Source of the DNA: Gemmatimonadales bacterium
GTDB taxonomy: Bacteria; Gemmatimonadota; Gemmatimonadetes; Gemmatimonadales; GWC2-71-9
Length of the DNA stretch: 64,000 nt
NCBI GenBank assembly: GCA_035278885.1
Contig: DATEIR010000127.1
Location: 19,728-83,727 of the forward strand
Direction: 5' to 3'
Positions 1-20,368 of this stretch are shown here, in pieces (positions within the stretch are counted from its first letter, which is position 1; every line of letters begins with the position of its first letter). Position numbers and translations under genes: made by a program. Under the pieces are notes generated by a model, which saw nothing but the letters and a program-made list of their open reading frames with translations, did no database searches and was not told the DNA's origin.

Positions 1-1
1 G

Positions 2-946
2 TGGTATGCCGCCCACCGGGACCTTCCGGTGCCACCCAGCGGCCGCGTCGAGCTGTACTCCGACCCGCCCGACCTTCGGCGCCGGTTCGGTGCGGCGGTC
101 CACGAGGCCGACCTCGTGATCGTGGGCTCGTATGTGCCGGACGGCGTCGCGATCGGGGAATGGGTGACGCGCGTAGCGGGCGGCCTCAGCGCCTTCTACG
201 ACATCGACACGCCGGTCACCCTCGCCAAGCTGGCCAGCGGCGACTACGAGTATCTCTCGCCGGAGCTGATCCCGCGGTACGATCTCTATCTCTCCTTCAC
301 CGGCGGTCCGACCCTGGAACGGCTGGAACGGGTCTACGGCGCGGTGGAGGCCCGCGCCCTCTACTGCTCGGTGGACCCGACGCTGTATCACCCGGAGCCG
401 GTGTTTCCCCGCCACGACCTAGGGTACATGGGCACCTACAGCCCCGACCGGCAGGCGGGGCTCGAGACCCTGCTGCTCCGCACGGCGACCGAGGCTCCGG
501 ACCGCGCGTTCGTGGTGGCGGGCCCGCAGTACCCGAGCTCGATCCAGTGGCCTTCCAACGTGGCGCGGATCGAGCACCTCCCTCCCGACCAGCACCGCCG
601 CTTCTACGCGGGCCAGCGCTTCACGCTGAACCTGACCCGGGCGGCCATGGTGAGCGCGGGGTACTCGCCCAGCGTCCGATTGTTCGAAGCCGCCGCCTGC
701 GGCACACCGATCATCAGCGACTACTGGGCCGGCCTCGACACCGTGCTGACACCCGGTCGGGAGATCCTGGTCGCGACTTCCACCAAAGAGGTGCTGGAGT
801 TCCTCCGTGAGCTGGACGACTCTGAGCGCCAGGCGCTCGGACTGCGGGCGCAGCGCCGGGTGCTGGCGGAGCACACCGCCGCGCACCGGGCCGCGGAGCT
901 CGAAGGCCACGCGCTCAGACTGCTGGCCCGGGAGCCCGCGGCGTGA
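2..946 (+). CDS. CgeB-like (GT1-type) glycosyltransferase, 5' end cut by window edge
   Basis: The frame is open from base 2 (WYAAHRDLPVPPSGRVELYSD) and aligns colinearly with residues ~45 onward of the paralog at 5562-6638 (PYYAAQRDLPELPAGRLILYPD; YDIDTPVTL; LFEAAACGTPI). The N-terminal ~45 aa therefore lie upstream of the window. Confidence 0.75.
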   Translation, partial: WYAAHRDLPVPPSGRVELYSDPPDLRRRFGAAVHEADLVIVGSYVPDGVAIGEWVTRVAGGLSAFYDIDTPVTLAKLASGDYEYLSPELIPRYDLYLSFTGGPTLERLERVYGAVEARALYCSVDPTLYHPEPVFPRHDLGYMGTYSPDRQAGLETLLLRTATEAPDRAFVVAGPQYPSSIQWPSNVARIEHLPPDQHRRFYAGQRFTLNLTRAAMVSAGYSPSVRLFEAAACGTPIISDYWAGLDTVLTPGREILVATSTKEVLEFLRELDDSERQALGLRAQRRVLAEHTAAHRAAELEGHALRLLAREPAA

Positions 947-1701
947 GCTCTCCGGCCGAGCTGGGGCCCTGGTTCCACAACCTGCACCTGCCGGACGGAA
1001 GCCAGACCGCGCCGGACCACTTCCTGGGTGACTTCCCCCGCTACAAATGGGAGGCGCTGGCGCCGTACCTGCCGGCCGATCTCGGCGGATGGACCGCGCT
1101 CGACATCGGCTGCAATGCCGGGTACTACAGCTTCGAGCTCGCCCGGCGCGGGGCGCACGTCACCGGGATCGACGTGGACGAGCACTACCTGCGGCAGGCC
1201 CGCTGGGCCGCGGTGGAATTCGGATTGAGCGACGCCGTCGAGTTCCGTCGGCTCCCGGTGTACCAGCTGCCCGAGCTGGGGCGCCGGTTCGATCTGGTGC
1301 TCTTCATGGGCGTGTTCTATCACCTGCGCTATCCCCTGCTCGGGCTCGATCTGGTTGCGCGCGCGACGCGGCGTCTGGCCGTGTTCCAGACCCTCACCGT
1401 TCCGGGCCAGGAGATCGCCGACACCGCCGACCGCCCGATCGAGGCGCGCGACGGGTTCCTGGAGCCGGGCTGGCCCAAGATGGCCTTCGTCGAGCAGCGC
1501 TTCGCGGGCGACCCGACCAACTGGTGGGTACCCAATCATGCCGCCGTGCTGGCCTTGCTGCGATCGAGCGGGCTCACGGTGCTGAGCGCGCCCGGACACG
1601 AGCTCTACCTCTGCGAGCCCGCGCCGCCCGACGCCCCGACCCGCGCGCCCTACGATTACAGCCCGGAGCTGCTCGCCGCCACGGGACGCGCGAGCGGATA
1701 G
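943..1701 (+). CDS. class I SAM-dependent methyltransferase (DUF1698/CmoB-like fold)
   Basis: SAM motif I LDIGCNAGYYSFELARRGA, followed by FDLVLFMGVFYHLRYPL. The start overlaps the upstream stop by 4 nt. Confidence 0.8.
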   Translation: MSSPAELGPWFHNLHLPDGSQTAPDHFLGDFPRYKWEALAPYLPADLGGWTALDIGCNAGYYSFELARRGAHVTGIDVDEHYLRQARWAAVEFGLSDAVEFRRLPVYQLPELGRRFDLVLFMGVFYHLRYPLLGLDLVARATRRLAVFQTLTVPGQEIADTADRPIEARDGFLEPGWPKMAFVEQRFAGDPTNWWVPNHAAVLALLRSSGLTVLSAPGHELYLCEPAPPDAPTRAPYDYSPELLAATGRASG

Positions 1702-1708
1702 GCGACGC

Positions 1709-3442
1709 ATGATCGTCTACCGGGAGACCCGGCGAAGCGTCGAGCCGGACTCGCTGCTGGCCGATCTCGAGCGCGGCGTCGCCCGCCTCGGCGCTCGCCC
1801 CCCGCACGATGCCATCGTCGGGACCGTCGTAGATCTCGGCATCGCCGAATCGGCGATTCTCGACGCGGTCCATCCCGTGGCCGACGACGATTGCGAGCCG
1901 GATCGTCGCTTCGGCGGGGCTGCGCTCTGCGCGGGACACCTCCTGCTCGACAGCTCGCGGGGGCGGTGGGAGCGCCTGGGCATGTGGACCACGGAGCTGC
2001 TCACCCGCATCCGCGCGACGCGGGACATCCCGCTGCCCGCTCGCTGTGCCGTCACCGTACCGGAAGGGTTCGCGCACTACGCGGTGTGGCCGGAGGCATA
2101 CGCGGCCTCGGCCTTGCGCCTGCATCGCGAGCTCCGGCCGGCTCGTGCATGGGTGATCGGCCTCCGGAGCATCGGAGCGCCACTCTCGGCCGCGGTGGCT
2201 GCCGCGCTCCGGGCCGAGGGATGCGTCGTGCTGAGGCAGACCCTGCGCCCGCGCGGCCATCCGTTCGACCGGCGCCCGGTGCTCGGTGCTCGTCTCATGA
2301 GCCGGCTCCGCGAGGATGCGAGGGACGCATTTTACCTCATCGTGGACGAGGGCCCGGGGTTGAGCGGCTCGTCGTTCGCCGGTGTGGCCGCGGCGCTCTG
2401 CGGGCTCGGCGTTCCCGAAGAGCGTGTCGTGATGCTTCCCAGCTGGCTCACCGAAGGCCGCGACCTCAAGTCGGGCCTTGCTCGGCGTCACTGGTCGAGG
2501 CACCGGCAGTTCGCTCCCGCGCACCAGAGCCCATGGCCTGCCCCCGCGCCACCGGCCCATCTCGACGGCGACGAACGCCTGATGGACCTTTCGGCCGGGC
2601 GGTGGCGGGCAAGACTCCTGGGGGCCGGAACTCCCTGGCCCGCCGTCCACCCGCAGCACGAACGCCGAAAAGCGGCGACCCGGACCCGGTGGTTCGCCTT
2701 CGCCGGGCTGGGGAGGTTCGGGGCACGCACGATCGAGCTGCAGGCGGCGCTGGCGGACGCAGGCCTCGCGCCCCGCCCACTCGCACTCGACCAGGGCATG
2801 CTGGTTCGCGAGCTGGTGGAAGGGACCCCGCTTCCGGCGACCGACCCCGACGGTCCGACGCTGGAGAAGATCGCCGGCTATCTGTGCCATCGTGCGCGGC
2901 ACTATCAAGCAGCCTGTGACGATCGAGCCGCACTGGCCGAGATGGCGCTGAGCAATGCGGGAGAGGCCGGGGGTGGCGAGCTCGCGCACGCCGCGGGCGA
3001 GCGTTTGCGCTCGAGCGGGTTTCCCGGGGATGCACCCGCGGTCGCGCTGGATGGACGAATGCAGCCGCACGAGTGGCTTCGGACCCGCGCCGGCCTGCTC
3101 AAGCTGGATGCCACCGATCATCACGCCGATCACTTCTTCCCAGGCTCCGGTGACATCGCCTGGGACCTGGCCGGAGCCGCCGTCGAGTTCGCCCTCTCGC
3201 GCGACGCCCGGGAGGCGTTCACCCGGTTCTACGTGGCGTGCTCCCGGGACCAGGGACTCGACCGACGCCTGCCGGGCTACATCGTCGCGTACCTGGCGTT
3301 CCGGCTCGGATACGCGAGTCTGGCGGCGGAGACCCTTGCCGGGACGGATGACGGAGCCCGCTTCACCCGGCTCAGCCGACGATATCTCCGGATGCTGCGG
3401 AGGGAGCTTGGAGTGCGGGCCCCTGCGACCACCGGTGTCTGA
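1709..3442 (+). CDS. hypothetical fusion protein: PRTase-like N-terminal half and protein-kinase-like (APH/ChoK-type) C-terminal half
   Basis: YLIVDEGPGLSGSSF resembles the PRPP-binding loop of type I phosphoribosyltransferases. The C-terminal ALDGRMQPHEW...LKLDATDH...GDIAWDLAG resembles the catalytic and activation segments of aminoglycoside/choline-kinase-like phosphotransferases. Composition is coding-like. Confidence 0.6.
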   Translation: MIVYRETRRSVEPDSLLADLERGVARLGARPPHDAIVGTVVDLGIAESAILDAVHPVADDDCEPDRRFGGAALCAGHLLLDSSRGRWERLGMWTTELLTRIRATRDIPLPARCAVTVPEGFAHYAVWPEAYAASALRLHRELRPARAWVIGLRSIGAPLSAAVAAALRAEGCVVLRQTLRPRGHPFDRRPVLGARLMSRLREDARDAFYLIVDEGPGLSGSSFAGVAAALCGLGVPEERVVMLPSWLTEGRDLKSGLARRHWSRHRQFAPAHQSPWPAPAPPAHLDGDERLMDLSAGRWRARLLGAGTPWPAVHPQHERRKAATRTRWFAFAGLGRFGARTIELQAALADAGLAPRPLALDQGMLVRELVEGTPLPATDPDGPTLEKIAGYLCHRARHYQAACDDRAALAEMALSNAGEAGGGELAHAAGERLRSSGFPGDAPAVALDGRMQPHEWLRTRAGLLKLDATDHHADHFFPGSGDIAWDLAGAAVEFALSRDAREAFTRFYVACSRDQGLDRRLPGYIVAYLAFRLGYASLAAETLAGTDDGARFTRLSRRYLRMLRRELGVRAPATTGV

Positions 3443-3932
3443 GCCGCTCGCCGGTTGGGACCTGGTCATCTTCGACGCGGACGACACCCTGCGGTTCACC
3501 ACCATACCCGGACAGCCGAGCCCTCGCGGTTCCGACGAATGGGCCCTGCTGCCCGGTGTGGCCGAGACGCTCAGCTTGGTTCCGTGGATGAGACCCGGCG
3601 GCCCGCGTCTCGGGCTCGCGAGCAACCAGGACCAGATCGGCTACGGATACCTGAGCGAGCGCACCGCCCGCCGTCTGCTGAAAGACCTGGCGCTCGCGGC
3701 CACGGGCACGGTTCCGCCGCCGCCCGCGATACAGCTCTGCCCCCACCGCCTGGAGGTCGCGTGCGACTGTCGCAAGCCGGCGCCCGGGATGCTGCGGCGC
3801 ATCATTGCCTACTACGGCGTTCAGCCCGGCGGGACGCTCTTCGTCGGGAACAGCGAGACCGATCGCGCGGCGGCGGAGTCGGCGGGGGTGCGCTACCGCG
3901 ACGCCGCTCGCGCCTTCAGGCGTAGCGCCTGA
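3435..3932 (+). CDS. HAD-superfamily subfamily IIIA phosphatase (GmhB/histidinol-phosphatase-like)
   Basis: All four HAD motifs are present: DLVIFDADDTL (DxDxT), GLASNQ, CDCRKPAPGM and VGNSETD. The in-frame GTG at 3435 overlaps the upstream stop. The listed ORF 2955-3932 is the same frame with a spurious 5' extension. Confidence 0.8.
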   Translation: MSEPLAGWDLVIFDADDTLRFTTIPGQPSPRGSDEWALLPGVAETLSLVPWMRPGGPRLGLASNQDQIGYGYLSERTARRLLKDLALAATGTVPPPPAIQLCPHRLEVACDCRKPAPGMLRRIIAYYGVQPGGTLFVGNSETDRAAAESAGVRYRDAARAFRRSA

Positions 3933-4800
3933 CCATGGCCGCGCAGAACTCGGCGAACTCCTCGACCCGGCGAGGCGGACTGGTATGGTGAGGGCGGAGG
4001 CCGGCGGACTCCGGAGTGAAGCAAAACGTGAGCGTGAGCTCGAACTCGTCCAGCGCCCGCATCTGGCGATCGAACCACGCCAACGCGCCGGGCCGGAGAC
4101 TGTCGGCCCAGCTCAGGCCGGTTCGCAGCCGCCGCACCCCGAGTCGGCGAAGCCAGCGCACGGCGTCGTCGAGGCGGGGGTCCTCGAAATGCAGCCACTG
4201 GCAGACGCCCAGCTCCGGGGCGTACTTCGCGAACGATGCCAGCGCCGGCTTGGGCGTGCCGTCTTCCCGGATCAACCCCAGATAGAAGTGGCGGTAGTAG
4301 GACGAGCCCTCCGCCTCCCGATGACGGGTGGTCGCCGGCCAGGCGCGGGGCAGATCGAAGAGGCTGTACCAGTGGATCCGCGCGGCCCGGCCGACCAGCA
4401 GCTCCGCGGTGCGGCGAAGCCCGAAGTCCTGCACCTCGTCCGCGCCGAAAGTCGAGACGCCGACCTCGGTCACCCAGACCGGGAGGTCGGTCACCCGCGC
4501 GATCTCCTCGAGCTTGTCCGGCCATTCGCGCAGCTGCCAGTGGTTCCAGTCGAGCGGAAAGCCGTGTACCGCCACCACGTCTACCCAGTCGAGCACGCCA
4601 TGCGATCGCATGGTGCGGACGAAGGACGGATCGATCGGCGAGATCCCGCCGAGCACCCGGGTGAGCCCGGGGCGCTCGCGGGTGATGGCCTCCGACGCGG
4701 CGCGCACCATCCGGGCGAAGATGCTCCAGTCGGGATCCAGCTCGAAATCCCAGTGAGAAAGATTATTGGGCTCGTTCCAGAGCTTGACCGCCTCGATCAC
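3916..4800 (-). CDS. clan GH-A (TIM-barrel) glycoside hydrolase, apparently circularly permuted
   Basis: KLWNEPNN (acid/base NEP motif) sits at residues 6-13 and LPVWVTEVG (nucleophile motif) mid-protein. The segment that normally opens such barrels (GVCQWLHF... LGVRRLRTGLSWAD ... LTLTFCFTP ... FAEFCAAMVRRYA) is at the C-terminus. The GTG start at 4800 overlaps the upstream TGA, and an in-frame stop at 4813-4815 blocks any longer N-terminus. Confidence 0.7.
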   Translation of the reverse strand: MIEAVKLWNEPNNLSHWDFELDPDWSIFARMVRAASEAITRERPGLTRVLGGISPIDPSFVRTMRSHGVLDWVDVVAVHGFPLDWNHWQLREWPDKLEEIARVTDLPVWVTEVGVSTFGADEVQDFGLRRTAELLVGRAARIHWYSLFDLPRAWPATTRHREAEGSSYYRHFYLGLIREDGTPKPALASFAKYAPELGVCQWLHFEDPRLDDAVRWLRRLGVRRLRTGLSWADSLRPGALAWFDRQMRALDEFELTLTFCFTPESAGLRPHHTSPPRRVEEFAEFCAAMVRRYA

Positions 4801-5558
4801 GCGACCGCTCCCTCACCCGGCCCGGCCTCCATCTCGGCCGGGCCGCGAAGCAGCTCCATGGCCTGGCGGTAGCCGTGCAGCGTGCCTACGTCCATGTAGG
4901 TCGCCCCGGCCCGCACGGCCAGGGCAGACCCGCCTTGCGCCAGATACGTGTTCACCAGCGTGCCGATGTATTCGTCGCGGCGGTCGCGCTCCAGCCAGAG
5001 CCGGTGCAGGGCTCGGAGTGTGCTCCCCATCAGACGGAACGCGCCCCAGATCCATTCCGTGCCCGGATCGGGCTGCTTGACCCGAATCTCCCGCACCCGC
5101 CCATCGGGGTCGGCGAGCACGGCATCGAAGAGCGCCGGGTGGTCCACCGGGAAGAGGAGAAACGACAGCGGCACATCGGGCAGCTCGCGGAGCGCCTCGG
5201 CGGGAAACCAGATGGTATCCGGCAGTCCGACCAGCACCGACTCGTGCTCCGGGATGAACGGCACCCCCCGGAAGATCGCGTCGCACAGGCCCCCTGGCGT
5301 GGGCTGGACGGTATAGCAGAGGTCGGCGCCCACCCGTCGTGTTCCGTAGTACTCCAGAATGTCGGACTTGCCGGGCGCGATCACGAAGCAGATCCGGTCG
5401 GCGCCGCCGAGCACCATCCGCTCCACCAGATACTCGCTCACCGCCCGTGGCCGCTCGGCACCGCCTTCCACTCGGCTGCCCACCGGGAGGAGCTCCTTGG
5501 AGAAGGCCAGCGGCTGGATCCGGGAGCCCGCGCCGGCCGCGGGTACGATGCCCCACAT
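4797..5558 (-). CDS. sugar-1-phosphate nucleotidyltransferase (RmlA/GlmU-N-like)
   Basis: N-terminal GIVPAAGAGSRIQPLAFSKELLPV matches the G-x-G-t-R-l nucleotidyltransferase signature. It is translationally coupled to the downstream hydrolase. Confidence 0.75.
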   Translation of the reverse strand: MWGIVPAAGAGSRIQPLAFSKELLPVGSRVEGGAERPRAVSEYLVERMVLGGADRICFVIAPGKSDILEYYGTRRVGADLCYTVQPTPGGLCDAIFRGVPFIPEHESVLVGLPDTIWFPAEALRELPDVPLSFLLFPVDHPALFDAVLADPDGRVREIRVKQPDPGTEWIWGAFRLMGSTLRALHRLWLERDRRDEYIGTLVNTYLAQGGSALAVRAGATYMDVGTLHGYRQAMELLRGPAEMEAGPGEGAVA

Positions 5559-5561
5559 CGG

Positions 5562-6638
5562 TCAGGCGCCCACGCTCAAGGCGCCCTCGAGCATCTCCAC
5601 CAGTTGGGCGCCCCGTCGCGCCGACGTGTGCTCGGCCAGCACCCGCTCGCGGGCGGCGCAGCCGATCCGCTCCAATTCCGCGTCGCTCAGCTCCATCGCC
5701 TCGAGCACATCTTCCGTGCTCGAGACCGTAAGGAGCTCCTCGCCCGGGGTGAAGAACTCGCTCAGCCCTTCCCACGAGTCCGTCACGACCGGCGTGGCGC
5801 ACGCGGCAGCCTCGAACAGGCGGCCCGACGGGCAGTAGCCGAAGTCCGCCATCGGCTCCCGGGTCACATTGAGGGTCAGGCGGGAGGACGAGTAGAAGGC
5901 GGGATGCTCCGCCGGCGGGAGGTGGCGCACGAAGTGGATGTTCTCGGTCCAGGGAAAGTCCTGCGGGTACTGCGCGCCGCCCATCACGAAACGGGCATCG
6001 GGCCGCCGGCACGCGGGCGCGATGAAGCAGGCCAGCACACCCCGCTGACGGTCGGCGGAGTAGGTGCCGAGGTAGGAGAGGTCGGCCCGGAACCGGTCCA
6101 CCGGCGGCATGCGGTGATGCACCTGCGGATCGACGCTGCCGTACAGCGGGAGCACCCTTCGCGCCCCCAGCCGCTCCCGCAGCGCGGTGAGCGCGGAGCC
6201 GCCGGTGTAGCTCAAGACCAGATCGTAGTCCGCCAGGCCACGCACGCCGAGGTAGGGCACCGAGTCTCCGCCGGCGAGCCGAGTCAGCGTGACCGGGGTA
6301 TCGAGGTCGTAGAACACGCGGGCGACGCCCGTGCTTCCGAGCACCAGCTCACCGGCCGCGACCCCGTCGGGACAGTAGGAGGTGACGATGGCGACGTCGG
6401 CGTCCCCCAGCTCCCGGCCGGCGAAATCCGTCACTGCCTCCCAGTCCGGATACAGTATCAGCCGCCCCGCCGGCAGCTCGGGCAGATCGCGCTGCGCCGC
6501 GTAATAGGGAAGGTCGCGCTCGAAGAAGACCACGCGGTGACCCAGCGCGGACAGCGCATCCACCAGGCCGCGCCAGAGGGTCGCGTGGCCGTTGCCCCAC
6601 GAGGAACTGATGGACAATCCAAAGACGACCAGCTTCAT
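5562..6638 (-). CDS. CgeB-like (GT1-type) glycosyltransferase, full length
   Basis: 358 aa and a paralog of the ORF at 2-946 (shared YDLDTPVTL, LSY(F)TGG, LFEAAACATPV, AEHT blocks). It is first in the minus-strand operon. Confidence 0.75.
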   Translation of the reverse strand: MKLVVFGLSISSSWGNGHATLWRGLVDALSALGHRVVFFERDLPYYAAQRDLPELPAGRLILYPDWEAVTDFAGRELGDADVAIVTSYCPDGVAAGELVLGSTGVARVFYDLDTPVTLTRLAGGDSVPYLGVRGLADYDLVLSYTGGSALTALRERLGARRVLPLYGSVDPQVHHRMPPVDRFRADLSYLGTYSADRQRGVLACFIAPACRRPDARFVMGGAQYPQDFPWTENIHFVRHLPPAEHPAFYSSSRLTLNVTREPMADFGYCPSGRLFEAAACATPVVTDSWEGLSEFFTPGEELLTVSSTEDVLEAMELSDAELERIGCAARERVLAEHTSARRGAQLVEMLEGALSVGA

Positions 6639-6732
6639 CCCGGCTCCCGAGTTCGACGTTCAAGGTGCCTGGGCCCTGGATGGCCGTGGATGAGTCAGGT
6701 CACACCCCCGCTGTGCGCTCTGGCCTGAGTCC

Positions 6733-7353
6733 ATGGCGACCGTCTTGTTGATCCGGCACGCCCACTGGGAGGGGGTCGGCCACGTGCTCGCGGGCCGCGT
6801 CGAGGGTATCCGACTGAGCCCCCGGGGCACGGTCGAGGCACGGCGTCTGGCCGATGCTCTGGCGACGATCGACCTCGCGGCGGTGTATACCAGCCCCTTG
6901 GAGCGGGCTCGAGACACGGCGATCCCACTCGCGGAGGCGCACGGTCTGGAGGTGCGGGAGGAGACGAGGCTCCTCGAGCTGGACTTCGGTCGCTGGACCG
7001 GGCAATCGATCGCGGCGCTGGAGACCGATCCGTCCTGGCGCAGATTCAACCTGGAGCGCGGCACAACCCGGATTCCCGAGGGCGAGACGATGGGGGAGGC
7101 GGTTGCTCGCGCCCGGGAGGCCCTGCGCGACATCGCGGGAGCGTGGGGGGACGCGCTGGTCGCGGCCGTCAGCCATGGCGACATCATCCGTGGTCTCGTC
7201 GCCGACGCGCTGGGCCTTCCGCTCGAGCGGCTGCTGCAGCTCGAGGTCGATCCGGCATCGGTGAGCATCCTGGTGAACGGGCCGCCCGCCGGGCTTTCGC
7301 TGCTCAACTGGCGGGCGGACCGACTCGGCGCACTGCCGCTGAAGCCGATCTGA
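6733..7353 (+). CDS. histidine phosphatase family protein (phosphoglycerate-mutase-like)
   Basis: LIRHAH (RHG-type motif), YTSPLERARDTA and AVSHGDIIRG motifs. Confidence 0.8.
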   Translation: MATVLLIRHAHWEGVGHVLAGRVEGIRLSPRGTVEARRLADALATIDLAAVYTSPLERARDTAIPLAEAHGLEVREETRLLELDFGRWTGQSIAALETDPSWRRFNLERGTTRIPEGETMGEAVARAREALRDIAGAWGDALVAAVSHGDIIRGLVADALGLPLERLLQLEVDPASVSILVNGPPAGLSLLNWRADRLGALPLKPI

Positions 7354-7583: not shown

Positions 7584-9365
7584 ATGCCCGTCACCTCCGG
7601 CCCCTTTCATCTCGCCGTCCGCTCCTTCGAATTCGTCCGCCCGCACCACCGCCGCCTCGGCGCAGTGGTCGTGCTCGCCCTGGGGCTGGCCGGTGCCAGC
7701 GCCGCGGACCCGCTCATCCTCAAGTACCTGTTCGACCAGATCGGACGCCCTGGCGGGCTCCGCGATTTCGCTCTCGCGCTGACCGGACTGGTCGTGCTGG
7801 AGCTGGCCCGCGCCGCGGTTCAGGGGTGGATGGGCGTCTGGAGCTGGGACGTTCGGCTCGGCGCGGAGTACGCCATTCGCGAGCGCGTGGTCACCCGTCT
7901 CAACGCACTGCCGCTGACGTTCCACCAGCAGCACGGCGTGGGCGGGACCATGACCAAGGTCAACCAGGCGATCGCAAGCTGGGTAGCGGCGTTCGGCGAC
8001 ACGGCGTTCAACCTGCTGCCCACCCTGCTCTACCTGGTGCTGTCGGTGGCCGCGATGCTCGAGCTCGAGTGGCGGCTGGCCCTGCTGGTGGTCGCGTTCG
8101 CGCCGTTGCCCGCGCTCATCGGCGCGCGCGCCGCGCCGGAACAGATTCAGCGCGAACGGCGCCTGGTGGAGCGGTGGAGCTCCATCTATTCCCGTTTCAA
8201 CGAGGTCCTCGCCGGCATTCTGACGGTCAAGGGCTTCAACATGGAGGACGCCGAGCGTCGGCGCTTCCTGACCGGCGTGAGGGAGGGGAACGAGGTCGTG
8301 CGGCAGGGCGTACGCACCGACAGCGTGAGCGGCGCGCTCCGCGGACTCATGGTGACCCTGGCCCGGATCACCGCGCTCGCGGTCGGCGGGTACCTCGCCT
8401 CGCGCGGCGAGATCACCGTCGGAACCCTGGTCGCCTTCCTCGGCTACATCGGCGGGCTCTTCGGCCCGGTCCAGGGGCTCACCAACACCTATCAGTCGGT
8501 CCGCAAGGCGACGGTGGCGCTCGAGGTGCTCTACGGTATCCTCGACGCCCCGGATGACGTGGCCGACGCTCCGGGCGCGGCCGACATCGCGCCGGTTCGC
8601 GGCGAGGTGCGCTTCAGCGGCGTCACCTTCGGCTACCAGCCTGGCATGGCGATCCTGCGCGGGATCGACCTGCAGGTGCGTCCCGGCGAGACGCTGGCGC
8701 TGATCGGGCCAAGCGGAAGCGGGAAGACCACGCTGGCCACGCTGCTGCAGCGGCTGTACCCCGTGACCGAGGGCACCATCGCGGTGGATGGGATGGACAT
8801 CCGGACGCTGACCCAGCAGTCGCTCCGGCGCCAGATCGGCGTGGTGTTCCAGGATCCGCATCTCTTCAACGACTCGGTCCGCGCCAACATCGCCTATGGC
8901 CGGCCCGAGGCGACCCCGGCGGAGGTGGAGGCCGCGGCTCGGGCGGCTCACGCCCACGACTTCATCATGGCCCTGCCCGACGGCTACGATACCGTCGTGC
9001 GCGAGCGGGGGAGCCGGCTCTCCGGGGGTGAGCGGCAGCGGATCGCCATCGCGCGGGCGCTGCTCAAGGACCCGCCGATCCTGATTCTGGATGAGGCCAC
9101 CTCGGCGCTCGACGCGGAGTCGGAGCGGCTCATCCAGCTGGCACTCGGCCGGCTGCTCCGTGGCCGGACCGCGCTCGTGATCGCGCACCGCCTGAGCACG
9201 GTGCGGGACGCGGATCGGATCGTGGTGCTCCAGGAGGGGCGAATCGCCGAAATCGGCAGCCACGCCGAGCTGGTGGCGGCGGGCGGGTACTACGCACGGT
9301 TGGTGGACAGCCAGCGGGAGGGATTTCTCGGCGAGACCGCCGGCTCCGAAGGGCGGGCGGCCTGA
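7584..9365 (+). CDS. ABC exporter, fused permease/ATPase (MsbA-like type I exporter)
   Basis: Six-TM N-terminal half, Walker A GPSGSGKTT, signature LSGGERQRIAIARA and Walker B ILILDEATSALD. Confidence 0.9.
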   Translation: MPVTSGPFHLAVRSFEFVRPHHRRLGAVVVLALGLAGASAADPLILKYLFDQIGRPGGLRDFALALTGLVVLELARAAVQGWMGVWSWDVRLGAEYAIRERVVTRLNALPLTFHQQHGVGGTMTKVNQAIASWVAAFGDTAFNLLPTLLYLVLSVAAMLELEWRLALLVVAFAPLPALIGARAAPEQIQRERRLVERWSSIYSRFNEVLAGILTVKGFNMEDAERRRFLTGVREGNEVVRQGVRTDSVSGALRGLMVTLARITALAVGGYLASRGEITVGTLVAFLGYIGGLFGPVQGLTNTYQSVRKATVALEVLYGILDAPDDVADAPGAADIAPVRGEVRFSGVTFGYQPGMAILRGIDLQVRPGETLALIGPSGSGKTTLATLLQRLYPVTEGTIAVDGMDIRTLTQQSLRRQIGVVFQDPHLFNDSVRANIAYGRPEATPAEVEAAARAAHAHDFIMALPDGYDTVVRERGSRLSGGERQRIAIARALLKDPPILILDEATSALDAESERLIQLALGRLLRGRTALVIAHRLSTVRDADRIVVLQEGRIAEIGSHAELVAAGGYYARLVDSQREGFLGETAGSEGRAA

Positions 9366-9369
9366 GCGG

Positions 9370-9897
9370 CTAGGTGCCTTCGAACGACGAGAAGGGCGGG
9401 ACGTTGGTCATCCAGAAGCCGGCCAGCCCGCCCTGCTGGTCGACTTCGACGTAGAAGTTGTCGGCCCCGCGCACCACTTCGACCTGCCGCCGCGGTCCGA
9501 TCCGCAGATGGAAGACACTCTCCGCCGAGTTGGTCTCGACCGAGAGCGTGGTATCCACCTCTACCGAGCTCACCGCGCGCGACCCCCCGCCGGGCAGCAC
9601 CACCCGCCCCTCTGTGAGCTGGGCCGGCACCTGCAGCTCCGACCGGGTGGCCACTTCCGGCCAGACGACCACGTCCAGTCCGCAGATCACGCCGTTGTTG
9701 ACCTCGAGCACGGCCACCGAGCCCTCGGCGTCGGTGAGCTCGACGGTGCCGGTCAGTCCCCCGCTCTTCCGATTGCCCTTGAACGCGCCGGAGAGGATGT
9801 CGGTCTCCGGGTCCCAGCGCCAGCCGATCGTCGGGAGCACGCCGGTGAGCGGCTCGACCCTGGCTTCCATATGCACCGGGGTGGCCTTAGGCGGCAC
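9370..9897 (-). CDS. hypothetical protein
   Basis: Coding-like composition with no motif I recognise. The GTG at 9897 overlaps the aminotransferase stop, and an alternative ATG lies at 9870. Confidence 0.5.
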   Translation of the reverse strand: MPPKATPVHMEARVEPLTGVLPTIGWRWDPETDILSGAFKGNRKSGGLTGTVELTDAEGSVAVLEVNNGVICGLDVVVWPEVATRSELQVPAQLTEGRVVLPGGGSRAVSSVEVDTTLSVETNSAESVFHLRIGPRRQVEVVRGADNFYVEVDQQGGLAGFWMTNVPPFSSFEGT

Positions 9898-11098
9898 GCG
9901 CGGGCTCGAGTTGATGGATGAACCGGAGGATACGATCGAGCGCCCGCTCCAGCTCCGCGTCCGACACGGCGTAGCTGAGGCGGACCCAGCGGTCGTCGCC
10001 GAACGCCGCGCCAGGGACCAGCGCCACCCCTTCCTGCTTCATCAGCTGCTCGCAGAAGGACGTTCCGGTGACCGGATCGTCTTCCCGGATGCCATCGACC
10101 CGGAAGAAGAAGTAGAACGCGCCGTGCGGCTCGACGAACTCTACCCCCGGTGCCGCGGTCCGGAACCGCTCGACCAGGTAGTCCCGGCGCCGGCGGAAGG
10201 CCGCCACCATCCTGGTCACCTCGGCCTCGACCCGCTCGTCGGTGAACGCCGTGGCGGCGGCCCACTGCGCCGGCTGGTTGGCCCCGGTGGTGGTGTGCGA
10301 CTGGAGCGCCGCCATGGCCTTCGTCAGGTGCGGCGGCGCGAGCGCGGCGCCGATGCGCCAGCCGGTCATCGCGTAGGCCTTGCTCGCGCCGTAGATGATC
10401 ACCGTCCGCTCGAGCAGCTCGTCCGGCAAATCCAGCAGCGAGGGCGCCGGGCCGGGGCCGTAGTTGATCCGACGATAGATCTCGTCCGAGATGATCCACA
10501 CCTCGTGCTTCTTGGCCCATTCGGCGATCGCCTTCAGCTCCGCCAGCGTGTAGACCGCTCCGGTCGGGTTGCAGGGCGAGCAGAGGATGAGCCCGCGGGT
10601 GGACGTCGTGTGATGCCGGTCGAGGTCCTTGACGCTCACCTTGAGGCCCCACTCGACATCGCCCGGCACCAGGACCGGGTCGGCCCGGCAGAGGTGGACG
10701 ATCTGAGGGTAGGACACCCAGGCCGGCGCCGGAATCAGCACCCGGTCCTTGGGGCCGAAGAGGGTGAAGCAGGCGTTGAAGATGGACTGCTTCGAGCCGG
10801 AGCTCACCACCAGCTGATCGGGATCCACCGGCCGGCCGCCCGACATCCGGCTCATCGCCTGGGCCATGCCCTTGCGAAGCTCCGCGATGCCGACGTTGGG
10901 CGGGTAACGGGTGAGGCCCTTCTGGACGGCCTGAATGCCGGCCTGGGCCGCGGGCGCCGGCGTGTCGAAGTCGGGCTCGCCCACGCCGAGGTCGAGGACG
11001 TCCTCTCCCGCCGCCTTGCGCCGCTTCGCCTCATTGCTGATGGCGACGGTTTCGGAGGCCTTGAGGTTCTGTACGTTGATGGAGAGTGCGTCGGGCAT
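9887..11098 (-). CDS. pyridoxal-phosphate aminotransferase class I (aspartate aminotransferase-like)
   Basis: ASKAYAMTGWRIG PLP-lysine motif and PCNPTG motif; 403 aa. Confidence 0.9.
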   Translation of the reverse strand: MPDALSINVQNLKASETVAISNEAKRRKAAGEDVLDLGVGEPDFDTPAPAAQAGIQAVQKGLTRYPPNVGIAELRKGMAQAMSRMSGGRPVDPDQLVVSSGSKQSIFNACFTLFGPKDRVLIPAPAWVSYPQIVHLCRADPVLVPGDVEWGLKVSVKDLDRHHTTSTRGLILCSPCNPTGAVYTLAELKAIAEWAKKHEVWIISDEIYRRINYGPGPAPSLLDLPDELLERTVIIYGASKAYAMTGWRIGAALAPPHLTKAMAALQSHTTTGANQPAQWAAATAFTDERVEAEVTRMVAAFRRRRDYLVERFRTAAPGVEFVEPHGAFYFFFRVDGIREDDPVTGTSFCEQLMKQEGVALVPGAAFGDDRWVRLSYAVSDAELERALDRILRFIHQLEPARAA

Positions 11099-11149
11099 GA
11101 GCGGTCCGGAGCTGAAGGCGTCGAGGATTCGGAGGGAAAGGTTTCGCGA

Positions 11150-11197
11150 CGGAGGAGGGATGTCAACCAGTCTCCACGCTGCTTGTACCCTCCTCCG
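11150..11197. repeat. 10-bp perfect inverted repeat (CGGAGGAGGG / CCCTCCTCCG) with a 28-nt loop in a divergent intergenic region
   Basis: Read directly from the sequence: arms at 11150-11159 and 11188-11197. Confidence 0.6.
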
Positions 11198-11244
11198 CCC
11201 GCCGCTACCTTGCCGCCAGTCTTTTCATTGCCTGGAGCCGGTCC

Positions 11245-12693
11245 GTGCCCTTGCCCGAGTCGCTGCATCTCTCATCCAGCGTAGCCGCCGCCGTCGAACG
11301 GCTGGGATGGGACGCGGACCAGGCCCTGCTCCGCGAGGCCGCGGCGACCGCGGCCCGGGGGCACAATCTCGTCATGGTGGTGCCGCCCGCCCCGGCCTAC
11401 GGCGTACCGGCCCTGGCGGGCCTTCTGAGCCGGCTCGGCGGCGGCGCCAGGGCGCTCCTGCTTGCCCCGCCGGCCCAGCTGGCCGAATGGGCGGCCACGG
11501 CGCACGAGGTCGGCCGAGGCAGCGGCCTCCGGGTGGAAGCGGCACAAGGCGCCGCCCGGGCTGGCCGCCGGCTCCGGGCCGGCGAGGTGAACCTCCTGAT
11601 CGCCGCCCCGGCCACCGCGCTCGAGCTCCATCGCCGATCCACCCTCGAGGCCGACCGACTCGCGGCGGTGCTGCTGGCCTGGCCCGAGAGCTGGGAAGAG
11701 GGCGAGGCGCTCACCCTGCTCATGGCCGATGTGGGCAAGGATGCCCAGCGGATTCTCCTGGTGGAGTCGCTGGAGCGGGCGGGAGAGTTGATCGAGCGCT
11801 ACGCCCGTCGGGCGCTGACCGTGGGCGCACCGCCGGCGGAGACGCCCGCCCCGGCCCCGGCAGGTCCGGTGCGCGTTGCGGGGGTGCCCTGGGAGCGACG
11901 GGCCGCCGCGCTGGCCGACCTGGTCGAGCTGCTCGATCCCGCCTCGCTGGCGGTCTGGACCGCGGACCGGACTCGCTGGGGCGAGATCGAGCGAGCGGTC
12001 GGGGCAGCCGCACCCGGGGTGACCATCACGTCCGGTGACGCGCCGAAGTCCGCCCTGGTGGTGGCCTTCGACCCGCCGACGCCCGAGCGCCTGGCGCAGC
12101 TCCTCGCCGCCGGCGACGTGGTCCTGCTCATGCCGCCCGGCACCGAGCGATACCTCCAGCGGGTGGCCTCGCCTCGGCGGCCGCTTCGTCTGCCGGGCCT
12201 GGTGGACAGCGTGACCACCGAGGCAGGGACACGTCGCGCGGCGGTAGCACGGGCCATCGAGGCCGGCCGCCCCGAAGCGGCGATCGCGGTGCTGGCTCCG
12301 TTGTTCGAGCGCTACGATGCCGGGGCCGTCGCCGCGGCCCTCTACGACCTGTGGACCGCCGCCCCCTCGGCCGCTCCGGCCTCGGCACCGGTGCCGGACG
12401 TTCCGGCCACCTCCAAGATCTTCGTGGGCATCGGCAAGAAGGATGGTGCCACGGTCAACGACCTGGTGGCGGTGCTGACGAAAGAGGTGCGGGTCGAGCG
12501 GACCCGGATCGGGCGGGTGGAGCTCAAGGATGCGTACGCGCTGGTGGAGATTCCCGCGCAGGAGGCGGAGCGGATCGCGGGAGCCCTCAACGGGACTACG
12601 ATCCGGCGCAAGCGGGTCACGGCGCGGGTGGATCGTGGGCCGGCGCGACCGACCCGGCCGACCCGGCCGACCCGGCCGACCCGGCGGGGCTAG
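11245..12693 (+). CDS. degenerate DEAD-box-helicase-like protein with a C-terminal DbpA-type RNA-binding domain
   Basis: The C-terminus (KIFVGIGKKDGATVNDLVAVL...VELKDAYALVEIP) looks like a DbpA/RRM-type domain. The upstream region has helicase-like spacing but no GSGKT Walker A and no DEAD box. The tail is RPTRPTRPTRPTRRG. Confidence 0.55.
   Translation: MPLPESLHLSSSVAAAVERLGWDADQALLREAAATAARGHNLVMVVPPAPAYGVPALAGLLSRLGGGARALLLAPPAQLAEWAATAHEVGRGSGLRVEAAQGAARAGRRLRAGEVNLLIAAPATALELHRRSTLEADRLAAVLLAWPESWEEGEALTLLMADVGKDAQRILLVESLERAGELIERYARRALTVGAPPAETPAPAPAGPVRVAGVPWERRAAALADLVELLDPASLAVWTADRTRWGEIERAVGAAAPGVTITSGDAPKSALVVAFDPPTPERLAQLLAAGDVVLLMPPGTERYLQRVASPRRPLRLPGLVDSVTTEAGTRRAAVARAIEAGRPEAAIAVLAPLFERYDAGAVAAALYDLWTAAPSAAPASAPVPDVPATSKIFVGIGKKDGATVNDLVAVLTKEVRVERTRIGRVELKDAYALVEIPAQEAERIAGALNGTTIRRKRVTARVDRGPARPTRPTRPTRPTRRG
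12651..12686. repeat. 9-bp tandem repeat GACCCGGCC x4 (last copy imperfect), coding for the (PTR)n tail
   Basis: Read directly from the sequence. Confidence 0.85.
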
Positions 12694-12699
12694 GTCGAG

Positions 12700-12990
12700 C
12701 TAGCGCTTCCGATTGACCAGGTCGCGGAGTCCGCGTGCCGCCCGGAACGCCGGCACCGTGGCAGCCGTGATGCTGAGCGCCTTCCCGGTCCGCGGGTTCC
12801 GCCCTTCGCGCGCGGCCCGCGGGCGGGTTTCGAAGGTGCCGAAGCCGGACACCGTCACCCGTCCCCCCCGACGCAGCTCGGTGGCGATCAGACCACCATC
12901 CGAAAAGAACAGCTCGGTGATCTCGTTGGCGCGGGCCTTGGTGACCCCTAGTCGCTTGGCGACGGCATCGACGAGATCCTGCTTGGTCAC
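12700..12990 (-). CDS. HU/IHF-family nucleoid-associated DNA-binding protein
   Basis: GFGTFETRPRAAREGRNPRTG...VPAFRAA signature. The GTG at 12990 is preceded by AAGGAG 5 nt upstream. The listed ORF to 13113 is a spurious extension. Confidence 0.9.
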   Translation of the reverse strand: MTKQDLVDAVAKRLGVTKARANEITELFFSDGGLIATELRRGGRVTVSGFGTFETRPRAAREGRNPRTGKALSITAATVPAFRAARGLRDLVNRKR

Positions 12991-13115
12991 CGTGACTCCT
13001 TGAGGCGGCTGGGGGCCCGAATATCGCCGAGCGTCCGAGAGCGCCGCAAGGTGACTGGAGTTTCCCGCGCGAGGCTCTACATTGACGCACCCCCCTCGCG
13101 CACTCCGGAGCACCC

Positions 13116-13721
13116 ATGAACTACGGCACCCACCCCGGCTGGATCGAGGTGATCAGCGGGGTGATGTTCAGCGGCAAGAGCGAAGAGCTCATCCGCCGGG
13201 TGCGCCGGGCCATCATCGCTCGCCGACGGGTGCAGGTGTTCAAGTCCCATCTCGATGCCCGGTACGCGGGCCTCTACAGCGTCTCCAGCCACGACGGTAC
13301 CGAGCTCGACGCCAGTCCCGTGGACTCGGCGGCCGAGATTTTCCGGCTGGTGCGACCGGACGTGCACCTGGTGGCGATCGACGAGGCGCAGTTCCTCGAT
13401 CCCGAGATCGTTCCTGTCACCGCGGCACTCGCGGCCCGGGGCCAGCGCGTGGTGCTCGCGGGCACCGACACCGACTTCCGGGGCGAGCCGTTCGGCTCCA
13501 TGGGCGATCTCATGGCGATCGCCGAAGTGGTGGACAAGCTGCAGGCGATCTGCGTGGTGTGCGGCGACCCCGCCTGCCGCAACCAGCGGCTCATCGACGG
13601 CAAGCCGGCGCGCTACCACTCGCCCACGATCATGGTGGGCGGCCGGGAGAGCTACGAGGCCCGATGCCGCCACTGCCACAGCGTGCCCCGGAAGGACGAG
13701 GATCAGACCCGTCTGCTGTGA
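13116..13721 (+). CDS. tdk: thymidine kinase
   Basis: P-loop [14 protein letters not shown], and a C-terminal zinc-ribbon pattern CVVCG...CRHC. Confidence 0.9.
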
Positions 13722-13796
13722 GCCGCGCATGCCCGGGTTCCGGATGATCACTCGCGGTGAGGCCGGGCCGGCTCCCGGCCGGCGGGGCTGAGCGCC

Positions 13797-14393
13797 GTGC
13801 TGCACGTGGGCCTCACGGGCAACATCGCCGCGGGCAAGTCGACCGTGGCCGAGCTCTTCCGCGGCTGGGGCGCGACGGTCATCGACGCCGACGAGATCGT
13901 GCGCCAGCTGCAGGCGCCGGGCAGCGACGTGCTGGCCGCCATCGCGGCGCGGTTCGGCCCCGCCGTGCTCCGTCCCGACGGCGCGCTCGACCGGCCGGTG
14001 CTTCGCGCGCGGGTGCTGGCCGATCCGGCCGAGCTGACCGCGCTCAACGCCGTGATGCACCCGGCAGTGGCCGCGCGCCGGCGCGAGCTGGTGACGGCCG
14101 CGCGCCGGCGCGGCGACCGGATCGTGGTGAGCGACATCCCTCTGCTCTTCGAGGCCGACGATCCCGCCGCCTTCGACGCCATCGTGCTGGTGGACGCGCC
14201 CGAGCCGGTGCGCCGAGCCCGGCTGGCCGAGCGGAGGCTGCCGGCCGACGAGGCCGAGCGGCTCATGGCCGCGCAGCAACCCTCGGCGGAAAAGCGCGCG
14301 CGAAGCGACTACGTCATCGACAACACGGGCGACCTCACCGCCCTCGAGCGCGCCGCCCGCGCGGTCTGGGAGGCGCTCGTCGCGCGCGCTTGA
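13797..14393 (+). CDS. coaE: dephospho-CoA kinase
   Basis: VGLTGNIAAGKST P-loop directly at the N-terminus, ~200 aa, DADEIV motif. Confidence 0.85.
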   Translation: MLHVGLTGNIAAGKSTVAELFRGWGATVIDADEIVRQLQAPGSDVLAAIAARFGPAVLRPDGALDRPVLRARVLADPAELTALNAVMHPAVAARRRELVTAARRRGDRIVVSDIPLLFEADDPAAFDAIVLVDAPEPVRRARLAERRLPADEAERLMAAQQPSAEKRARSDYVIDNTGDLTALERAARAVWEALVARA

Positions 14394-14448
14394 CCTCGGC
14401 GGCAGCCCCGCCTATCCTCCCACCCGCCACCACGCGACCGGAGTCACC

Positions 14449-14838
14449 GTGTCGAACGTTCCGGACGATCTGCTGTATACCCCCGAGCACGAATACGTCG
14501 CCCGCACCGGCGATCCCGCGGTCGTCCGGATCGGGATCACCGACTACGCCCAGGGCGAGCTGGGCGACGTGGTCTTCGTCAATCTGCCCAAGCGGGGCGA
14601 TGCGCTGGCGAGCCACCAGGCCTTCGGCACCATCGAGGCGGTCAAGGCCGTCAGCGAGCTGTACAGCCCCGCCGCCGGCACCGTCGCGGAGATCAACCCG
14701 GCGCTGGATGCCGATCCGGCGGTGGTCAACCGGGACCCGTACGGCGAGGGGTGGATGATCGCCCTCCGCCTCTCGGACCCGGCCGCCCTGGACGGGCTGC
14801 TCTCGCCCGCGGCCTATCGCTCCCATATCGGGGAGTAG
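14449..14838 (+). CDS. gcvH: glycine cleavage system H protein
   Basis: Lipoyl-lysine motif EAVKAVSELYSP; 129 aa. Confidence 0.9.
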   Translation: MSNVPDDLLYTPEHEYVARTGDPAVVRIGITDYAQGELGDVVFVNLPKRGDALASHQAFGTIEAVKAVSELYSPAAGTVAEINPALDADPAVVNRDPYGEGWMIALRLSDPAALDGLLSPAAYRSHIGE

Positions 14839-14901
14839 CTCGAGTCCCGGAGTCGTCGTGCAGCGGTGTGTCGAGCAGGCCAAGCTTCCGCAGATCATCA
14901 G

Positions 14902-14932
14902 ATGCCCCGAGGGCGTGTCCTCGGGGCATTTT
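14902..14932 (+). terminator. 11-bp perfect stem / 6-nt loop hairpin followed by a short T-run between gcvH and gcvP (attenuator or partial terminator)
   Basis: ATGCCCCGAGG gcgtgt CCTCGGGGCAT TTT, read directly from the sequence. Confidence 0.45.
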
Positions 14933-14970
14933 CACGTGCGCCCTCTTCCGCAGCCAAGGTGTCGGGTCCC

Positions 14971-18640: not shown

Positions 18641-18723
18641 GACCGACCTCTCGCCTCCCCCCGTCTCCTGCAGGTCGCTACATTCCGTTCCATCCCCACC
18701 GCATCGTCAGCCCCGGAGCCTCG

Positions 18724-20367: not shown

Positions 20368-20368
20368 C

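Follow-up and report, generated by a model that had tools for sequence, protein, structure and literature searches.

Organization of the locus

The stretch of DNA analysed here, hereafter the window, comprises 64,000 nucleotides (nt) of contig DATEIR010000127.1 (C127) from a Gemmatimonadales bacterium (assembly GCA_035278885.1), a genome with a GC content of 70% that is distributed over 187 contigs at a completeness of 90.5%. The nearest homologues of the proteins encoded in the window are found in metagenome-assembled genomes of Gemmatimonadales. The original prediction, made from the sequence alone, placed in the first 6,638 nt a self-contained pathway of two convergent operons for making, methylating and trimming a glycan. 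We found that positions 1-6638 are the distal half of an accessory cluster of approximately 18 kb and 17 genes, designated A to Q (C127:11018-29092), so the pathway is not self-contained: the plus-strand operon starts approximately 8.7 kb upstream of the window and runs through genes A to H before it reaches those that had been described. The cluster is a real and conserved orphan system for the assembly of a glycan or glyco-cyclitol, half of which is covered by the seven genes first noted. Its genes, with positions given in the window, are listed below.

A, B and C, upstream of the window, plus strand: short-chain dehydrogenase/reductase (SDR) sugar-nucleotide enzymes; C is nearest to dTDP-glucose 4,6-dehydratase, below the cut-off
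D, upstream of the window, plus strand: Zn-dehydrogenase; best named family, scyllo-inosose 3-dehydrogenase IolM
E, upstream of the window, plus strand: Gfo/Idh/MocA oxidoreductase; best named family, inositol 2-dehydrogenase IolG
F, upstream of the window, plus strand: GT4 glycosyltransferase
G and H, upstream of the window, plus strand: two further CgeB-like transferases
I, to 946, starting 144 nt before the window (C127:19585), plus strand: CgeB-like glycosyltransferase, 362 amino acids (aa), PF13524
J, 943-1701, plus strand: TIGR04290-family S-adenosylmethionine (SAM) methyltransferase, 252 aa
K, 1709-3442, plus strand: 577-aa three-part protein with helical, phosphoribosyltransferase (PRTase)-like and choline-kinase/APH-fold kinase parts
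L, 3435-3932, GTG start, plus strand: HAD-IIIA phosphatase of the GmhB/histidinol-phosphatase type, 165 aa
M, 3916-4800, minus strand: circularly permuted GH-A (PslG/GH39-like) glycoside hydrolase, 294 aa
N, 4797-5558, minus strand: sugar-1-phosphate nucleotidyltransferase distant from RmlA, 253 aa, PF00483
O, 5562-6638, minus strand: fourth CgeB-like glycosyltransferase, 358 aa, PF13524
P, 6733-7353, plus strand: histidine-phosphatase-superfamily phosphatase, 206 aa, PF00300 (E 5.8e-43)
Q, 7584-9365, plus strand: MsbA/NdvA-type half ABC exporter, 593 aa, PF00664 and PF00005

The seven genes first described (I to O) lie where they had been placed, as judged from their open reading frames (ORFs) and from a third-position GC content of 0.81-0.91 in every cluster frame examined (I to P). 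The tight coupling reported between them was also found at most junctions: I and J, like N and M, share a GTGA overlap, K follows J after 7 nt and N follows O after 3 nt. The exception is the junction of K and L, where an overlap that had been put at no more than 7 nt is 8 nt long, by way of the GTG at position 3435. An alternative ORF for L, at 3455-3925, was rejected in favour of 3435-3932 because its third-position GC content is 0.57 and its product, read from the wrong frame, has no family match. The convergent genes L and M share their last 17 nt (3916-3932), which leaves no space for a terminator between the two operons.

Conservation of the cluster across bacterial phyla

When an alignment of K was scanned against 185,579 species genomes, at least 571 of them were found to encode a relative. 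We mapped the 80 best K loci, which fall into about ten phyla by their record titles; the counts out of 80 that follow include 12 loci with K only, as well as loci cut by contig ends. At least one other family of the system was present in 68 of the 80. J and M co-occurred in 41, the four genes O, N, J and M in 32, and two or more of G, H and I in 35. Taken singly, M was found in 47 loci, I in 37 and P in 39, within 400 nt of K in 13 of them, and N adjoins O in every locus that holds both. The histidine phosphatase gene originally placed at 6733-7353, beside the cluster, is present at that position and a conserved member of the system in its own right.

The arrangement of these families is modular. 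One module consists of B and C, in some loci preceded by A, then either D and E or a B12-binding radical-SAM gene, and then F, G, H and I; a second is O-N-J-M, and a third is K with a phosphatase. Optional additions are a PIG-L deacetylase with a GT1 glycosyltransferase and an Acetyltransf_6 protein (20-23 loci), sometimes an inositol-phosphate synthase and sometimes Q. In a locus from the Fibrobacterota, 13 genes of the system run in the same direction, most of their junctions being short gaps or overlaps, and Pfam bears out 11 of the 13. Conservation of the neighbourhood had been named as a check on the original prediction, and the recurrence of the same families around K indicates that these genes form one conserved functional unit, albeit a modular and reshuffled one. 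Where K, with or without L, stands apart from the rest, a TIGR04290 gene was found above cut-off elsewhere in five of five genomes, versus none of 14 control genomes. Within the Gemmatimonadota the distribution is patchy, with TIGR04290 in 4 of the 151 genomes searched and in 2 of 12 from this genus (the counts for this phylum, here and for inositol-phosphate synthase below, include the unpublished genome G060), and we therefore consider the cluster an accessory trait.

Environmental sequence data were also matched. Metagenome runs of soil, rhizosphere and plants from about 12 studies contain DNA that is near-identical to positions 1-6700 and shares 57-96% of sampled words with them; the sample from which the genome came may be among the best holders. 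In addition, three soil metatranscriptome runs from two studies yielded short pieces that are identical to portions of I, J, K, M and O. Contigs from such RNA libraries may carry DNA and are at most a weak hint that the cluster is transcribed, and the stretches they leave uncovered carry no meaning.

Counterparts in rhizobia and Azospirillum

By its gene families, the cluster belongs to the uncharacterised TIGR04290 neighbourhood, nicknamed 'rhizo-twelve', which is exemplified by SMb20240-SMb20249 on pSymB of Sinorhizobium meliloti and by a plasmid locus of Azospirillum brasilense. Common to these two loci and to the cluster are a TIGR04290 methyltransferase above cut-off, at least three CgeB-like transferases, a GT4 transferase, SDRs, a permuted 'beta-xylosidase', K and a histidine phosphatase; the S. 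meliloti locus, whose annotation we took from GenBank CP050561.1, also shares the pair of Zn-dehydrogenase and Gfo/Idh/MocA genes. In A. brasilense, myo-inositol-1-phosphate synthase, the histidine phosphatase, the TIGR04290 methyltransferase, the 'beta-xylosidase' and K lie in a row, opposite an epimerase, a TIGR04295 radical-SAM gene, a GT4 gene and three transferases. The S. meliloti order is synthase, P and M divergent from K, followed by the Gfo/Idh/MocA and Zn-dehydrogenase genes, SDRs, GT4, transferases and J. Here, a polysaccharide pyruvyl transferase gene and a gene similar to the 'coenzyme F420 hydrogenase' beta subunit also adjoin the cluster (positions 9728-12203 of the mapped locus), and neither was found in the other mapped loci.

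The Gemmatimonadales cluster differs from these relatives in several respects. It has no gene for the B12-binding radical-SAM protein TIGR04295, the slot of which, between C and F, is occupied by D and E. A radical-SAM protein was likewise unmatched in all loci titled Gemmatimonadales or Gemmatimonadaceae, and was found in 10 of the 80 loci elsewhere. The cluster also lacks its own inositol-phosphate synthase, and it adds the O-N pair, the HAD-IIIA phosphatase L and the exporter Q. Elsewhere the synthase gene lies in the cluster in S. meliloti, Azospirillum and three of the mapped loci (L016, L031 and L081), of which L031 is a compact seven-gene operon of Arenibaculum with the synthase, P, O, N, J, M and K. 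It was found in 9 of 10 K-bearing genomes tested, and in 6 of these no more than about 7 kb separate it from J or the cluster. P directly follows the synthase gene with a 4-nt overlap in S. meliloti and after an 8-nt gap in Azospirillum.

The S. meliloti counterpart is induced by RpoE2, the general stress sigma factor. In S. meliloti 1021 the K homologue lies at pSymB 253395-255086, between SMb20247 and SMb20249. According to the supplementary tables of Schlueter et al. 2013 (PMC3616915), SMb20241, 20243, 20245, 20247 and 20249 show signal log ratios of 2.2-3.9 on rpoE2 overexpression (Table S18), and SMb20249 has a sigma-E2 promoter upstream of a mapped start site (Tables S11 and S19). Tags of the SMb2023x-2025x series occur in the supplements of that paper only, and in the main text of neither PMC6180224 nor PMC3616915. 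Our literature search returned nothing on TIGR04290, TIGR04295 or 'rhizo-twelve', and a full-text search returned nothing on six of the SMb locus tags.

Architecture of K and its phosphatase partners

Sequence searches with K gave no match in Pfam, NCBIfam or the Protein Data Bank (PDB), and a profile search of the PDB likewise gave nothing meaningful. None of 38 members of the K family matched Pfam at E ≤ 0.001, and their weak matches at E ≤ 1 were scattered; none of the longer, fused forms of K (1011-2885 aa) scored, which is weak evidence. In an AlphaFold (AF2) model built from 38 homologues (mean predicted local distance difference test score, pLDDT, 90), K comprises a helical N-terminal domain (residues 1-110), a PRTase-like domain (approximately 119-274) and a kinase of the choline-kinase/APH fold (approximately 271-570). 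The kinase half (271-570) aligned with 3dxq over 260 residues (VIA Z 18.1, root-mean-square deviation 4.3 Å) and matched LicA (Foldseek E 7.8e-7), and glucosamine kinase as well as sugar-1-kinases, among them maltokinase and N-acetylhexosamine 1-kinase, also appear in the fold-match lists. The Pfam APH and Choline_kinase profiles matched none of the 38 members at E ≤ 0.1 and one at E 0.29. For the PRTase-like part, the whole model matched type I phosphoribosyltransferases and phosphoribosyl pyrophosphate (PRPP) synthetase (VIA Z 11.7), and the matches to this part include PRPP synthetase, UPRT, APRT and HGPRT, mixed with binding proteins. Within the K alignment, a V-D-E-G-P-G-x-S-G-S-S loop is invariant and looks like a PRPP or 5-phosphate loop. 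The label of a PRTase/kinase-like fusion first given to K thus holds at the level of the fold, from VIA and Foldseek comparisons of the AF2 model, with moderate confidence for the PRTase-like part.

The partner of K in this cluster, L, matched the HAD-IIIA family TIGR01662 (49 bits, cut-off 44.6) as well as Pfam HAD families, and its DxDxT motif reads F-D-A-D-D-T near the N-terminus. Its best named match was GmhB, at 68.8 bits and below the equivalog cut-off of 178. A phosphatase gene lies at most 400 nt from K in 37 of the 80 loci, and belongs to one of three unrelated folds: HAD-IIIA in 21, histidine phosphatase in 13 and PHP-domain in 3. One protein, P0225, is a natural fusion of K and L in which residues 587-732 are 61% identical to L, and clusters of 976-983 aa in the ESM Atlas that structurally match K (TM-score approximately 0.8) carry a Hydrolase_3 (HAD-IIB) family. 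That unrelated phosphatase folds replace one another as the partner, and that such fusions exist, argues that the product of K would be a phosphate ester in need of dephosphorylation.

Two observations concern particular lineages. In some loci of a Deltaproteobacterial type (L041, at 11628-12281; L043, L047 and L078), a PHP-domain phosphoesterase gene follows K in place of one for a HAD or histidine phosphatase. In Rubellimicrobium rubrum (mapped locus, 12195-19552) the K-L pair adjoins four genes with domains of the glycogen or trehalose type, encoding a protein with CBM48 and alpha-amylase domains, an NTP_transferase with a hexapeptide repeat and two more alpha-amylase-domain proteins; this proximity may be due to chance or may reflect a link to alpha-glucan metabolism.

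Two precedents bear on what K and its partner might do. The route to nucleoside diphosphate (NDP)-heptose employs an anomeric kinase, the phosphatase GmhB and a nucleotidyltransferase, and in the cluster, too, a kinase is encoded together with a HAD-IIIA phosphatase of the GmhB type and a small nucleotidyltransferase. It departs from that route in that the kinase of K has the choline-kinase/APH fold and not that of the GHMP kinases or ribokinase, a GmhA-type isomerase is absent, L scores well under the GmhB cut-off given above, and N is absent from some versions of the system that keep K. The second precedent is CriT/CrpP of the capsule polymerase Bcs3 from Haemophilus influenzae type b, which, as described in PMC10299916, performs a PRPP-dependent ribofuranosyl transfer followed by the action of a HAD phosphatase, and resembles K-L in having a PRTase-like domain flanked by helical bundles with the HAD phosphatase fused or adjacent. 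K differs from Bcs3 in that it also possesses a kinase, and in that its partner may have the HAD, histidine-phosphatase or PHP fold. Neither Bcs3/CriT nor the Thermobacillus enzyme was among the 50 best matches listed in either fold search, which does not exclude a relation. As analogies, both precedents fit K.

Transferases, methyltransferase, nucleotidyltransferase and hydrolase

The remaining enzymes could be assigned to families from sequence. Both I (E 6e-41) and O (E 1.2e-38) match PF13524 and are 49% identical over 347 aa, in keeping with their earlier description as clear paralogs, and the CgeB-like genes of this genome (G, H, I and O, paralogues of one another) are located solely in the cluster. 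J scored 326.9 bits against TIGR04290 (cut-off 300) and is the only product with a methyltransferase domain among the 17 cluster genes scanned; its nearest relatives of solved structure are CmoB (E 5e-14) and the methyltransferase domain of WbdD (E 3.6e-8), and in 24 of the 80 loci no more than 400 nt separate it from K. N scored 32.7 bits against PF00483 (cut-off 21.2) and 46.7 against the RmlA equivalog, far under its cut-off of 360; all 20 of its matches of solved structure were glucose-1-phosphate thymidylyltransferases (best E 2.6e-9).

M has a single sequence relative of solved structure, the GH39 enzyme PslG of Pseudomonas aeruginosa (E 0.0017). Residues 3-195 of M align with PslG 132-330, including the NEP and TE motifs, and residues 197-293 with PslG 21-128. 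M is thus predicted to be a circularly permuted hydrolase of clan GH-A in which both catalytic motifs are kept. Its family exceeds 8000 homologues, and the 120 listed are 289-315 aa long, almost all of them 294-295; because the family is large and of near-uniform length, we take the permuted form to be the native one. M and PslG are alike in the NEP acid/base and TE nucleophile motifs and differ in strand order, which is swapped in M, and in the signal peptide or anchor, which M lacks; the low similarity (the E value above) is to be read with this comparison.

Profile, sequence and fold searches therefore bear out all six domain types that had been named, K at the level of the fold only, and these families support the proposal that the cluster covers activation, dephosphorylation, transfer, methylation and hydrolysis. 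The enzymes also look soluble, as had been claimed. In a hydrophobicity scan of the cluster proteins with 19-residue windows, no transmembrane-like window was found in I, J, L, M, N, O or P, and K has two marginal hydrophobic windows that lie inside its Rossmann-like core.

The solubility of the transferases, of the methyltransferase and of a hydrolase whose catalytic motifs are intact, together with the tight coupling of their genes, speaks for the proposal that the seven genes alone make, methylate and trim a cytoplasmic polymethylated polysaccharide akin to the mycobacterial methylmannose polysaccharide (MMP) or its methylglucose counterpart (MGLP). The likeness extends to a shared logic and stops short of common ancestry. 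According to PMC9883506, the MMP cluster too consists of a few genes for soluble enzymes, namely methyltransferases (MeT1 and MeT3), a transferase (ManT) and a hydrolase (MmpH), and its glycan is cytoplasmic, methylated and recycled by the hydrolase. In that cluster, MmpH is an (alpha/alpha)6 barrel without homology to the predicted permuted (beta/alpha)8 barrel of M, ManT is a GT4 enzyme in contrast to the CgeB-like I and O (the wider cluster here also has one GT4, F), there are two methyltransferases (1-O and 3-O) versus one, and a kinase, phosphatase and nucleotidyltransferase do not figure among the genes. In addition, the cluster described here is not self-contained, its enzymes are not homologous to the MMP set, the presence of four to five different transferases points to a defined hetero-oligosaccharide rather than a homopolymer, and K with its phosphatases and the inositol genes would be left unexplained. 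We consider this model improbable.

An adjacent ABC exporter gene

The original prediction held that the cluster has no exporter and argued from this for a cytoplasmic product. An ABC exporter gene, Q, however, begins 230 nt after P. Its product has transmembrane segments and scored below the cut-off of every NCBIfam equivalog. Q lies beside the system in 15 of the 80 loci, from Gemmatimonadota, Manganitrophaceae and Ignavibacteria, at 52-72% identity, and is probably a member of the system in some lineages. Its adjacency, and its conservation in three phyla, weaken the argument for a cytoplasmic product.

These observations raise an alternative in which the product is an exported envelope or extracellular glycan: soluble transferases would act at the inner face of the membrane, K and J would terminate the chain in the manner of WbdD, Q would export it, and M would act as PslG does in exopolysaccharide operons. 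WbdD is the kinase and methyltransferase that terminates the chain of the E. coli O9a antigen. Besides the position and conservation of Q, this explanation draws on the match of J to the methyltransferase domain of WbdD and its frequent proximity to K, on PslG as the sole solved relative of M, and on a Syntrophales locus in which Wzz-like and Bac_transf genes lie approximately 1-5 kb downstream of K. It has to contend with the lack of a polyprenyl-phosphate priming transferase, of Wzm/Wzt and of Wzx/Wzy in the cluster, with the 64 of 80 loci in which Q was unmatched (many of them cut by contig ends), with an M that has neither signal peptide nor anchor and a Q that falls under every named exporter cut-off, and with CmoB, not WbdD, as the closest solved relative of J. 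On balance we regard this alternative as possible but rather unlikely.

Beyond Q, positions 13116-24172 hold housekeeping genes, namely those for thymidine kinase, dephospho-CoA kinase, glycine cleavage proteins H and P, lipoate-protein ligase and an oligopeptide ABC importer, and we therefore place the end of the cluster at approximately 9365. Directly after Q, on the opposite strand, is a 175-aa ORF (9370-9897, minus strand) with a third-position GC content of 0.91 and no Pfam match. A 482-aa ORF further on (11245-12693, plus strand) has the DbpA RNA-binding domain, located at the C-terminus, as its sole match (E ≤ 1e-4); helicase core domains were not reported for it, and its N-terminal start or frame may be wrong.

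A proposed pathway

The reading we prefer, and hold with moderate confidence, is that the cluster is a modular, cytoplasmic assembly line whose product is a short oligosaccharide, O-methylated and probably with a cyclitol (inositol) as its base or as a constituent, for use under stress conditions; as a whole it is inferred from the gene families. In this pathway, N would make an NDP-hexose and the SDRs A, B and C would remodel NDP-sugars. Inositol phosphate would come from myo-inositol-1-phosphate synthase, a housekeeping enzyme in Gemmatimonadota and an in-cluster one in Proteobacteria, and the ring would be remodelled by the IolM-like D and the IolG-like E, with P stripping the phosphate. 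The GT4 enzyme F and the CgeB-like G, H, I and O would then form one linkage each, and J would O-methylate the product, as a cap or a decoration.

K and its obligatory phosphatase partner, here L, would add a phospho-group and then strip a phosphate, for which we envisage two options. In the manner of CriT/CrpP, K could transfer a phosphoribosyl group from PRPP, with 5-dephosphorylation as the second step. Alternatively, it could phosphorylate a sugar phosphate at the anomeric position, with the distal phosphate then removed as in the NDP-heptose route, and so feed N. M, in which both catalytic glutamates are kept, may trim or recycle the glycan, and in versions with Q the product, or something derived from it, may leave the cell.

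Several results weigh against this reading. Conservation of the exporter speaks for a product that may not remain cytoplasmic. The PRTase-like assignment of K, which rests on a modelled fold, is made with moderate confidence: when the N-terminal 290 residues were folded alone (pLDDT 92.6), the best matches (VIA Z 9.1) were interleaved with periplasmic binding proteins, Foldseek returned nothing at E ≤ 0.001 for this half and PRTases at E of approximately 0.02, and the Pfam Pribosyltran profile matched none of the 38 family members at E ≤ 1. The catalytic loop of the kinase is also atypical, with Gly for the usual Asn of H-x-D-x4-N (a consensus reading of our own). As N is missing from alphaproteobacterial versions that keep K, the route through K, L and N is weakened. 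With respect to the cyclitol, D scored 96 against IolM (cut-off 450) and E 100 against IolG (cut-off 355), both far below. The synthase gene of this genome is unlinked, lying on another contig among unrelated genes, and was found in 142 of the 151 Gemmatimonadota genomes; as it is unlinked and almost all members of the phylum have it, nothing specific to this genome can be read from it, and its presence is consistent with a housekeeping copy that serves the cluster without being evidence for one. Finally, our literature search found no product, enzyme activity or phenotype in print for the system.

The inositol genes also invite comparison with mycothiol. A GT4 transferase, PIG-L deacetylase and FemAB-like acyltransferase could together make an N-acyl- or aminoacyl-glucosaminyl-inositol metabolite of the mycothiol or bacillithiol type, which the other genes would decorate. 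PIG-L, GT1 and Acetyltransf_6 genes occur inside the system in 20, 22 and 23 of the 80 loci, respectively, inositol-phosphate synthase and the phosphatase belong to it, and a module of inositol, glycosyltransferase and deacetylase resembles the logic of MshA, MshA2 and MshB. In this genome, however, tblastn (E ≤ 1e-3) found no homologue of PIG-L or Acetyltransf_6 proteins of the type seen in the clusters, a genome search with PF13480 gave only near-cut-off matches on other contigs (21-24.7 bits versus 22), and no cysteine ligase is present. As the PIG-L module is optional and absent here, it cannot define the product of this cluster; we rejected the mycothiol-like reading for this genome and regard it as highly improbable.

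A bolder form of the preferred reading can also be considered. K and its interchangeable phosphatase might constitute a new, soluble two-step glycosylation module, in which an O-phosphoribosyltransferase that uses PRPP would be joined to a small-molecule kinase and would have its product dephosphorylated at once, and the 17-gene system might make a new class of ribosylated, methylated glyco-cyclitol for general-stress use in many soil bacteria of about ten phyla. We put this forward as a speculation that is more doubtful than not by a wide measure.

Significance

The system spans at least 571 species genomes, among them model rhizobia that have it in their general stress regulon, and S. meliloti and Azospirillum offer tractable genetics for its study. 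Two of its proteins are unusual: K, a family without Pfam coverage that joins a PRTase-like domain, as assigned from its modelled fold, to a kinase, and M, a predicted clan GH-A hydrolase in circularly permuted form. Identification of the product could bring to light a stress-protective glycan or glycoside of wide occurrence, together with new carbohydrate enzymology.

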